From assembly GCF_030013205.1 (NCBI RefSeq), contig NZ_CP122648.1: a DNA stretch of 64,000 nt; one strand, written 5' to 3'. The position numbers were made by a program, and so were the translations under genes. Source of the DNA: Escherichia coli (GTDB lineage: Bacteria; Pseudomonadota; Gammaproteobacteria; Enterobacterales; Enterobacteriaceae). Every line of letters starts with the position of its first letter. The first letter of the stretch is position 1. This document shows, piece after piece, positions 59,265 to 62,247 of this stretch. The notes under the pieces are model-generated. The model saw only the letters and a list, made by a program, of their open reading frames with translations, was not told the DNA's origin and did no database searches.

Positions 59265-59686
59265 TAGACTGGCCCCCTGAATCTCCAGACAACCAATATC
59301 ACTTAAATAAGTGATAGTCTTAATACTAGTTTTTAGACTAGTCATTGGAGAGCAGATGATTGATGTCTTAGGACCGGAGAAACGCAGACGGCGTACTACA
59401 CAGGAAAAGATCGCTATTGTTCAGCAGAGTTTTGAACCGGGAATGACGGTCTCCCTTGTTGCCCGGCAACACGGTGTGGCAGCCAGCCAGTTATTTCTCT
59501 GGCGCAAGCAATACCAGGAGGGAAGTCTTACTGCTGTGGCCGCAGGAGAGCAGGTCGTTCCTGCCTCTGAACTTGCTGCTGCCATGAAGCAGATTAAAGA
59601 ACTCCAGCGCCTGCTCGGCAAAAAAACGATGGAAAATGAACTCCTTAAAGAAGCCGTTGAATACGGGCGTGCAAAAAAAGTGGATA
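59265..59686 (+). mobile_element. IS2 5' fragment (left end and first ~125 codons of InsC), truncated
   Basis: matches the IS2 left end as I remember it (TAGACTGGCCCCCTGAATCTCCAGACAACCAATATCACTTAAATAAGTGATAGTCTT..ATGATTGATGTCTTAGGACCGGAGAAACGCAGACGG..) and then diverges after ..AAAAAAGTGGATA. Confidence 0.8.
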
Positions 59687-62247
59687 CAGTGCTCAGCGAA
59701 AAACAACAAAAGCTGATGCAGCAGTTAAGCACCCGGCTTGAACGCCTGAATGAATCGCGCACACGGGAAATTCAGAAAATGCGGGAGCTTGGCGGAGAGC
59801 TGAAACGCCACGGCATTTCCCTGACAGGCAGCGATAACACCATCCAGCAGGCCATCAGACGCACCGAACAGTACAACAACCAGCTTGAACGCGAACGGCA
59901 GGCGCTTGCGCGTGTAACACGGGCGCGTGAGCGGTATTCGCGCGCGCAGGAAACAGCGGGAAAACTGAAAACAGGTGGTGCGCTGGCAATTGGTGCGGCA
60001 ACGGCGGGCGGCTATGCTGCCGGGCGTTTTTTGCAGCCTGCGATCGGGTTCGGCAAAGAGATGTCCCGCGTTCAGGCACTGACGCGAATCGACAAAAACA
60101 GCCCGCAGTTTAAGGCGCTGCGTGAGCAGGCGTTAAAACTTGGCTCTGAAACACAGTTTACTGCGAGTGATGCCGCCAGTGGGCAGAGCTTTCTGGCAAT
60201 GGCTGGTTTTACTCCGCAGGCCATTCAGGCCGCATTGCCCGGTGTTCTTAATATGGCGCTGGCAGGTGGCGTCGAACTCGGCGAGACGGCTGATATAGGC
60301 TCCAATATCCTCACACAGTTCAACCTGACAGCCGATCAAATGGACCGTGTTGGCGATACGCTGACAGCAGCATTCACCCGGACCAATACTGATTTACGCG
60401 CGCTGGGCGAAACCATGAAGTATACCGGTCCGGTTGCCGCAAAACTTGGTATCAGTCTTGAAGAAGCGGCGGCCATGGCCGGGATGCTTGCCAATAATGG
60501 TCTTCGCGGAAGCGATGCTGGTACGGCCATGCGCGCAAGTCTGTCCCGCCTTGCATCACCGCCAAAAGCTGCGGCTGATGCACTGAAAGAGCTGGGGGTG
60601 TCAGTTGCTGACGCCAGAGGCAAAATGCGCCCGATGGAGGATGTGCTGCTTGATCTCTATAAGGCGACACAAAAATACGGACAGGTGGACCAGGTTTCCT
60701 TCTTCAAGGACATCGCCGGAGAAGAGGCGTTCGTTGGTTTGCAGACGCTTGTTGCGGCGGCTGGTTCAGGAGAGCTGCAAAAACTGACCAGAGAATTGCA
60801 GGGGGCAAGGGGAGAGGCCGATCGCGTCGCAAAAGTAATGGCCGATAATCTTGATGGGGACCTGAAAAATCTCGACAGCGCATGGGAAGGTCTTCGTATT
60901 CGCATCAGTGATCTGGTTGACGGTCCGCTGCGTTCTGTCACGCAGTGGCTCACGCGGGTGCTTGAAAAAATCACCTCGCTGGCGCAGGCCCATCCGGTAC
61001 TGACGCGCCAGCTACTGATAGCAGGCGGTGCGTTGCTGGCAATGACTGCAACGATTGGCTCGTTGTCGCTGGTTATTGGGGTGCTTTACGGGAAGCTGGC
61101 CACCCTGCGTCTTGGTTTTGACATTCTTACCCGGTCAATGAATGTCGTCAGGGTGTTGCCTGCGCTGTGGGGAATGGTGACGGGTTCCGTTTCTTTACTG
61201 GGAGGCGCCATCGGGGCGTTGTTCAGTCCGGTTGGTCTTATCGTGGCTGCGCTTGCCGGAGCTGCCGTTCTTATCTGGAAATACTGGGATCCCATCAGGG
61301 CATTTTTTGCCGGGGTGTTCAGCGGGATTATGGAAAGGCTGACCCCGTTGCGCGAAACCTTTGAACGGTTTGGTCCTGTTTTTGACACAATCGGAAGCGG
61401 GATCAGCCAGGTGTTTAACTGGTTTAAATCGCTGCTGTCACCGATGGAGTCCAGCAAGGAAACGCTGGATAAATGTACCAGTGCTGGCGAGATATTCGGT
61501 AACGTTCTTGGCGGTGCGTTACAGCTTGTTCTGACACCTGCAAAAATGCTACTGGATACGCTGGCGTGGATACTTGAAAAACTTGGCGTCCTTCCGGATG
61601 AAGCGGAAAGGGCGCGCAAGAAAATCGAAGACGCACAGCGTGCGGCCATTCTTCAGGACAAGGTTGCCTTGCTTCAGGGTGACCTGGCGAAAATCAATCC
61701 GCCGAAGCCTGTGGAAAATGGCAATGGCACCGGAGGTAATAAACCCAAAGACAACAAACCGCTCACAGACAGCAATACCGGGACGCTACGCAGACTCAGC
61801 AAAATTGCTGATAACACAGGTAAGCTGGTTGATGAGACGAAAAAACGCATTGGCCCCGGCGATATTGTCTTTAAGAACCTGCCCCGCGCACTTGCTGTTC
61901 GTGGAGAGTGGCAGGAGCGGAAGATTGCGCAGGTCAGTAAGCCTGCCCCCGCAATTAATATCACACCCGTGGTCCCGGCTCCGCTGCCTCCGGCGCTGGT
62001 CCCTGTTGTTGCGGCCAGCTCCCGCCCGGTGGCGGAGGCCATACGATCTCCAGTGGCATCAGTTCCTGTAACTTCCCGTAACCGGGAGCCTGTTGCCTCC
62101 GGATTTGGTGGTGAAATTCATGTTCATCTGCATAACGTTGTTACGCAGAATCCCCGCGAACTGGCGAAACTGGTCGGTGAAATGGTCAGGGCAGAAATGG
62201 AACGGCGCGCCCGTGCCGGGCGTGGCAGTTTTTACGATAAAGATTGA
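59687..62247 (+). pseudogene. phage tail tape-measure protein (P2 gpT-like), 5'-truncated and fused in frame to the IS2 insC fragment
   Basis: 978-aa chimeric ORF 59311..62247: first ~125 aa are IS2 InsC, remainder is coiled-coil/Ala-Gly-rich with hydrophobic segments typical of tape-measure proteins; directly followed by gpU. Confidence 0.7.

Follow-up and report, generated by a model that had tools for sequence, protein, structure and literature searches.

The window analysed here, a 64,000-nt stretch of Escherichia coli DNA, carries a prophage remnant between ihfA and btuC, and over at least 16.9 kb it is identical to ETEC1748, a pig isolate from Belgium. The remnant consists, in order, of hok/gef and ogr, the hxsDBCA cargo, tail gene D with ISCro1, a stub of IS2 followed by a truncated tape-measure gene ('T) and U, an acetyltransferase gene, a tail-fibre assembly gene and a truncated tail fibre gene (Table 1). 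ISCro1 is bordered by an 8-bp target duplication, ATGCATTT, found at 55862-55869 and again at 58569-58576. D is also incomplete at its other end: its N-terminal ~90 codons are cut away where the IS2 sequence begins, and in E. coli F344, where this prophage occupies the same chromosomal site and has no IS2, D runs 270 nt further to its start.

Table 1. Features in and around the IS2-tape measure junction (positions in the window)
Feature	Position	Strand	Basis or remark
3' (C-terminal) piece of tail gene D	55724-55869	-	Collinear with D of F344 and phage 500465-2; PGAP 'hypothetical protein'
ISCro1 (IS66 family, 2,699 bp) within D	55870-58568	-	Annotation, BLAST, junction sequences
Middle part of tail gene D (P2 gpD / VgrG-like)	58569-59264	-	PHROG 52 tail protein, E 5e-103
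IS2 IRL, 42 bp	59265-59306	+	Includes most of the OrfA operator
OrfA operator TAAATAA	59304-59310	+	Position after PMC3299598
Extended -10 promoter P_IRL, just inside IRL	from TGAT 59312	+	Position after PMC3299598
IS2 orfA (insC) codons 1-108	59356-59679	+	IS2A alignment, NF006928
Slippery run	59673-59679	+	A7 in the window, A6 in canonical IS2
Final IS2 bases GTGGATA	59680-59686	+	Val-Asp in the orfB frame; IS2A and F344 T alignments
Unique T sequence following the A-run, …GTGGATACAGTGCTCAGCG			
Tape-measure gene T, codons 83-935 and stop	59686-62247	+	F344, phage 500465-2, TIGR01760, PHROG 28
Tail gene U (P2 gpU family), intact, 6 nt past T	62254-62748	+	PHROG 76 E 2e-74; PF06995; PGAP 'phage tail protein'

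The initial annotation described a 978-aa open reading frame that begins as the left end of IS2 with the 5' part of insC and loses its IS2 homology after ..AAAAAAAGTGGATA, and both points were borne out by alignment to the IS2A element of K-12 (L003 1761-3091). Window positions 59265-59686 correspond to nt 1-421 of IS2 with 94.8% identity and one extra A; the match starts exactly at the first base of IRL, stops at ..GTGGATA, and thus fixes the break at IS2 nt 421. The first 87 nt (window 59265-59351) show no differences from IS2A, and compared with a common IS2 variant the stub is 99.8-100% identical. All 108 InsA/OrfA residues that it encodes (1-108) match those of K-12 InsA (108/108), and therefore the substitutions in the coding part are all synonymous. 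The NCBIfam model NF006928, 'IS2 repressor TnpA', matches aa 1-108 of the translated ORF with 235.8 bits (cutoff 229). The rest of IS2 is missing, as had been proposed: BLAST detected no IS2 sequence in the window beyond nt 1-421, so that no full IS2 is present there, and orfB, which encodes the DDE transposase, is absent beyond 7 nt of the stub. Neither IRR nor the 5-bp target duplication of IS2 is found in the window, and the locus is a fragment rather than an element.

The distal part of the frame was likewise correctly recognized as a tape-measure homologue. From window 59682/59685 onward it is 99.9% identical at the nucleotide level to the T gene of F344 (L002 8759-11566), which encodes a 935-aa 'phage tail tape measure protein' (WP_000853387.1), and its product shares 97.9% amino acid identity with that of the complete Escherichia phage 500465-2 (Gemsvirus, Peduoviridae) and ~36% with the T proteins of PSP3 and other P2-like phages. 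The model TIGR01760 (tape_meas_TP901) covers aa 221-565 of the fusion with an E value of 3e-86 (289.5 bits, cutoff 28.8), PHROG 28 (tail length tape measure protein) matches with an E value of 7e-197, and PF10145 matches the ORF of the A6 allele described below. The N-terminal truncation that the initial annotation had surmised amounts to the native residues 1-82 of the 935 in F344 T. Only part of the operon setting of T remains: U is kept, and the sheath and tube genes, E and E', all found in F344 and phage 500465-2, have been deleted. Without them, and with D interrupted by IS2 as well as by ISCro1, the remnant cannot give rise to a tail.

The long frame is indeed open, and the length given for it needs to be corrected. 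The 978-codon ORF (59311-62247, plus strand) was counted from a GTG at 59311, which belongs to the IS2 leader, whereas orfA itself begins with the ATG at 59356, preceded by a GGAG Shine-Dalgarno sequence. From this codon the fusion is a protein of 963 aa, comprising InsA 1-108, Val-Asp and T 83-935. Annotation pipelines treat the same locus in different ways. For most of the genomes PGAP/RefSeq represents it by two adjacent pseudogenes, a transposase without its C-terminus and a tape measure without its N-terminus, and in ETEC4068 and ETEC4075 it is annotated as an intact 'tape measure protein' (WP_282842278.1).

Comparison with F344 provides the arrangement from which the junction arose. In F344, D lies on the minus strand and is followed, after a 160-bp gap, by sheath, tube, E, E', T and U on the plus strand; D is N-terminally complete there, with its start near L002 6324, and is interrupted further downstream by an ISCro1 of its own. 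Collinearity between the window and F344 extends to L002 6054 (window 59264) and resumes at L002 9001/9004 (window 59682/59685), and these limits place the insertion of IS2 in D after nt 270. Relative to F344 carrying a full IS2, the missing DNA is nt 422-1331 of IS2 (910 bp) and L002 6055-9003 (2,949 bp), in all ~3.9 kb, and the phage DNA that was lost includes the 5' end of D, sheath, tube, E/E' and codons 1-82 of T. At the junction, the dinucleotide TA (59685-59686) is common to IS2 (GGATA|GCG) and to T (GGG|TA|CAG).

The initial annotation had regarded the junction as the end point of either a deletion or an inversion. It is a rearrangement end point and a deletion; an inversion, or another adjacent rearrangement mediated by the IS2 transposase, has hardly any probability. 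Such an event is suggested at first sight by the position of D on the strand opposite to T and U, which resembles a block inverted relative to P2, and IS elements are known to promote inversions. In P2 the tail genes FI-FII-E-T-U-D are collinear. However, phage 500465-2 and F344 remain collinear through 6.5 kb, which include D and the block from sheath to U, and again across the baseplate genes; therefore the divergent layout of D against sheath-to-U is native to this phage group. The geometry of the junction also argues against an inversion, because an inversion between IS2 421|422 and T 245|246 would join IS2 1-421 to the reverse complement of T 1-245, whereas the join that is observed connects IS2 1-421 to T 246 onward in the same orientation. 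An old inversion of the sheath-to-U block, which had been suspected from the P2 order, was thus ruled out by the order in phage 500465-2 together with the junction geometry. Furthermore, adjacent deletions and inversions mediated by a transposase begin at the end of an IS and leave it whole. Here the break lies inside IS2, at nt 421, and the junction is therefore not a canonical transposase-mediated adjacent deletion.

The anatomy of the locus, its ancestral state, the geometry of the deletion and the distribution of the alleles are matters of direct observation. The mechanism of the deletion is best explained by illegitimate or microhomology-mediated joining. In a first step, IS2 would have entered D at a point ~90 codons into the gene, with orfA facing the divergent sheath-tube-E/E'-T-U operon. 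In a second step, a single illegitimate deletion at the TA microhomology would have taken everything from IS2 nt 422 through codon 82 of T. The break that it left, 7 nt beyond the -1 frameshift window of IS2, would have placed T in the orfB (-1) frame. It may be that an IS-excision enhancer (IEE) helped in this deletion, a suggestion taken from the literature. IEE promotes excision of IS3-family elements and deletions of flanking DNA, and has been reported in swine enterotoxigenic E. coli (ETEC) O139 (PMC9397093; bioRxiv 10.1101/2023.06.07.543989). The junction resembles the IEE-promoted IS3-family deletions of STEC and swine ETEC O139 in the family of IS2, in the extension of the deletion into the flank and in the 2-bp microhomology, and the host lineage is likewise swine O139, whose members are reported in the literature as iee carriers. 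It differs from them in that the deletion has one of its end points 421 nt into the IS and not at or near the terminus.

The junction between D and IRL was found in 14 of 5,426 complete E. coli genomes, and all 14 of these also have the IS2'-'T junction. Pigs or wild boar in Belgium, France and Korea were the source of all 14, and two more NCBI assemblies, GCA_900450405.1 and GCA_900195485.1, share the junction. An assembly artefact was ruled out by its recurrence in all of these assemblies, which come from several countries, and the junction is accordingly real and clonally inherited rather than misassembled. The carriers differ by only a few SNPs in 25 kb. Among the 5,426 complete genomes none has D with a whole IS2, which would be the intermediate, and the junction, with either A6 or A7, was matched 0 times in a metagenome scan.

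The carriers are divided by the length of the A-run that precedes the final IS2 bases. Seven As are present in ETEC1748, 4067, 4070, 4071, 4079, 6333, 6334, 4068 and 4075, and six in K_EC180, W13-16, P15-25, ETEC4069, ETEC1701, UGEY01 and FZGA01. The A6 allele places T in the -1 (orfB) frame and gives orfA' a length of 119 codons, and the TGA of orfA' overlaps the ATG of T Met93 (TGATG), from which a separate 843-aa ORF begins; the 119-aa product of this allele is present, on two contigs, in a collection of ~15 billion proteins. The statement that the two parts are fused in frame consequently applies to the A7 window and eight other assemblies and fails for the seven A6 assemblies, so that the in-frame fusion is a one-base variant of an otherwise split locus. 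In canonical IS2 the A6G heptamer is a slippery window at which -1 frameshifting yields OrfAB, and mutation of A6G to A7G makes the frame-fused OrfAB the main product (PMC3219604, PMC3299598). At this locus, only the seven A6 assemblies have such a heptamer ahead of a -1 ORF, and the A7 of the window gives a direct fusion. The proposed ancestral product would then be the A6G one, a 119-aa OrfA-like protein whose stop overlaps the ATG of T Met93 (TGATG), and the extra A (A7G) would subsequently have joined orfA straight to T to create the 963-aa ORF.

The A6/A7 polymorphism is probably genuine. The length of the run conflicts both with a SNP (L001:15323) and with a 1,044-bp (348-codon) in-frame deletion inside T, which is found in ETEC4068 and ETEC4075 (A7) and in UGEY01 (A6), and all four combinations were seen. 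From this conflict it follows that the run changed at least twice or that some of the calls are wrong. It is somewhat unlikely that A7 is a sequencing or polishing error, in which case the true state would be A6G everywhere, with orfA' and a separate 'T ORF and no 963-aa ORF. Consistent with an error, all nine A7 assemblies came from one Belgian ETEC project and those from other projects (K_EC180, W13-16, P15-25, UGEY01 and FZGA01) all have A6, the four combinations of run and marker require at least two changes among near-identical genomes, and the same project also produced a full-length plasmid IS2 with A7. However, that project reported A6 at this locus in ETEC4069 and ETEC1701, and close relatives show no further indels across 25 kb, which indicates that these assemblies are not generally prone to homopolymer errors. 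Moreover, a full-length IS2 with A7 was matched at 100% identity in just 3 of 6,558 IS2-bearing records, and none of the three is the chromosome of one of the nine A7 genomes, despite the identical sequence upstream of the run. Short reads mis-mapped from other IS2 copies would be expected to bias the call toward A6, not A7.

The fusion could be expressed from the IS2 promoter P_IRL, as judged from the sequence of the stub: its operator and extended -10 element are intact, and so are its Shine-Dalgarno sequence and ATG. A generic scan of 59150-59800 for sigma-70 promoters and terminators returned nothing. This empty result is consistent with published descriptions of P_IRL, an extended -10 promoter that is weak and lacks a -35 element (PMC3219604, PMC3299598). 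Any transcription would have P_IRL as its only source; the scan revealed no stronger promoter. P_IRL is weak and is repressed by OrfA, which binds just upstream of it (PMC3299598). Other IS2 copies are a likely source of OrfA, with each carrier genome containing 7-17 matches to the IS2 left end.

We looked for signs that the fusion has a function, and none were found by a PADLOC scan, in the protein collection or by comparison of the carriers. Neither the toxicity nor the defence-related activity that the initial annotation had considered for tape-measure fragments received any support. The locus is very probably a non-functional deletion scar, or pseudogene, in a decaying Gemsvirus-type (P2-like, Peduoviridae) prophage of porcine ETEC/O139:H1, its lack of function being the inferred part of this reading. 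The loss of 1,044 bp from within T in one lineage supports it, indicating that the length of T is not constrained. Two observations could be held against it. First, the T ORF is open everywhere and its sole large change is in frame, which could hint at constraint; given a divergence of only a few SNPs per 25 kb, this is more likely to reflect the recency of the locus plus a 1-in-3 chance. Second, A7 occurs on two different local haplotypes, a pattern for which selection of the fused frame, and not drift, could be responsible.

It is very unlikely that the chimera has been co-opted, with the DNA-binding module of OrfA acting in trans as an additional IS2 repressor, or truncated T, made as the fusion or by re-initiation at TGATG, acting as a dominant-negative factor against tail assembly or DNA injection by incoming P2-like phages, and A6/A7 serving as a switch. 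What could suggest such a role is that, along with the intact promoter, operator, Shine-Dalgarno sequence and start, InsA 1-108 is 100% conserved, that T 83-935 remains one uninterrupted ORF in every carrier assembly and is left translatable by both the A-run change and the 1,044-bp deletion, and that the run changed at least twice among very close relatives. In addition, tape-measure proteins are a known interface of prophage defence, as shown by Tab, which targets the tape-measure protein (PMC10884400). Despite this precedent, there was no sign of a truncated tape measure acting as a defence protein; in a scan of the 963-aa protein against PADLOC-DB v2, no family matched at E <= 0.01. Also against co-option, the distribution is clonal (14/5,426), the divergence is too low for selection to be detectable, P_IRL is weak and OrfA-repressed, the exact 963-aa protein is absent from the ~15 billion proteins of the collection, and the relation of the frames is a chance outcome of 1 in 3. 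It is extremely doubtful that the A6/A7 run works as a slippage-prone switch between an OrfA-like repressor with a re-initiated truncated T on the one hand and the single fusion on the other, with one of the products benefiting the host. If it did, incoming Gemsvirus/P2-like phages might, for example, be hindered in a dominant-negative way in assembling their tails or injecting their genomes, or IS2 activity might be damped.

As a very probably non-functional deletion scar, the locus can be related to several known systems. It is similar to the engineered IS2 OrfAB of Lewis and co-workers (PMC3219604, PMC3299598) in that the same base change, A6G to A7G, occurs at the same site and the first two fused residues are Val-Asp. 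In contrast to that construct, the change here is natural and polymorphic, and the downstream frame is not orfB but a phage tape measure, joined 7 nt past the frameshift window. Compared with the intact Gemsvirus-type T of phage 500465-2 and F344, it retains residues 83-935 with the TIGR01760 region and is directly followed by U, whereas residues 1-82 have been replaced by a foreign N-terminus of 110 aa, the partner genes are deleted and D is broken twice. Like the cryptic prophages of E. coli, the remnant has decayed stepwise through insertion of IS2 and ISCro1 and through deletion, and its ORFs are annotated as pseudogenes. The locus is thus another instance of an IS-disrupted prophage remnant, of an ordinary and already annotated kind, and there is no categorical difference between it and others.

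The locus carries little biological weight in itself, and it is a well-resolved example of prophage decay, in which insertion of an IS was followed by a microhomology deletion. It also illustrates that such scars make long chimeric ORFs, which annotation pipelines handle inconsistently, and it cautions that a long ORF alone is no proof of function. Since the junction lies just past the frameshift window of IS2, a one-base change in the A-run toggles the frame between split and fused, and the locus could therefore act as a natural reporter of slippage in this run.

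The IS2 fragment at the junction (window 59265-59686) differs from the K-12 IS2A by 21 substitutions and an extra A, approximately 5% of its nucleotides, and 108 of the 108 OrfA residues are identical to those of IS2A; therefore, all coding changes in the fragment are synonymous. This shows that OrfA has been under strong purifying selection while IS2 variants diverged. A full-length IS2 whose natural run is A7G instead of the canonical A6G is rare (3 of 6,558 IS2-bearing records); such copies were found in NZ_CP068591.1, NZ_CP158308.1 and the ETEC1720 plasmid NZ_CP122864.1 (L006 2592-3821). 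The copy on this 100-kb plasmid, which is surrounded by tail-fibre genes, encodes OrfAB as a single fused CDS of 409 aa (WP_162832306.1), a naturally occurring equivalent of the IS2 transposase that was engineered as a hyperactive fused-frame form.

Features of the prophage remnant and of the related F344 prophage
Feature	Coordinates	Remarks
Hok/Gef toxin gene and ogr/Delta zinc-finger late activator	window 51318-51909	ihfA-proximal end of the remnant; from annotation
His-Xaa-Ser system (hxsD, hxsB, hxsC, hxsA)	window 52162-55559	cargo between prophage ogr and D
ISCro1 (IS66 family) in D, window lineage	window 55870-58568	target duplication 55862-55869 / 58569-58576
ISCro1 (IS66 family) in D, F344	L002 2872-5570	
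D remnant, second chimeric ORF (276 aa)	window 58515-59345	minus strand
In-frame deletion (1,044 bp) within the tape-measure part	window 59768-60811	segment missing from ETEC4068 (L005), ETEC4075 and UGEY01 (L013)
Hexapeptide-repeat acetyltransferase (serine/sugar O-acetyltransferase-like), then tail-fibre assembly gene	window 62937-63482, 63446-64000	opposite strands

The segment missing from the tape-measure part is flanked by 6-bp direct repeats, and its loss leaves in ETEC4068 and ETEC4075 an OrfA-T chimera of 615 aa; the annotation treats this chimera as intact, under the name 'phage tail tape measure protein' (WP_282842278.1), and not as a pseudogene. The chimeric ORF formed by the D remnant starts within the IS2 IRL and ends within ISCro1, and a 236-aa version of it (WP_236492796.1, 'VgrG/Pvc8 family') was called a normal gene by PGAP despite being truncated at both ends. 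The ISCro1 sites of the window lineage and F344 lie 213 bp apart in identical orientation, and each copy is flanked by a distinct 8-bp target duplication (ATGCATTT and GTTTGCGG); the two copies are either independent insertions or the outcome of a local hop, within one small gene.

In Gemsvirus-type P2-like phages, D is divergent from a sheath-tube-E-T-U operon (L012 10230-17068; L002 5571-12072), which is itself convergent with the tail-fibre genes, whereas in P2 the order FI-FII-E-T-U-D is collinear. In the slot between ogr and D, the complete Gemsvirus phage 500465-2 carries just ~1.25 kb of unrelated sequence instead of the His-Xaa-Ser system, which consists of two radical-SAM maturases and a repeat peptide and had no more than weak generic radical-SAM (viperin) similarity in PADLOC. 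The acetyltransferase gene has U on one side and the tail-fibre assembly gene on the other; the 3' ends of the acetyltransferase and assembly genes overlap by 37 bp. The acetyltransferase gene is probably a moron, possibly serving O-antigen modification.
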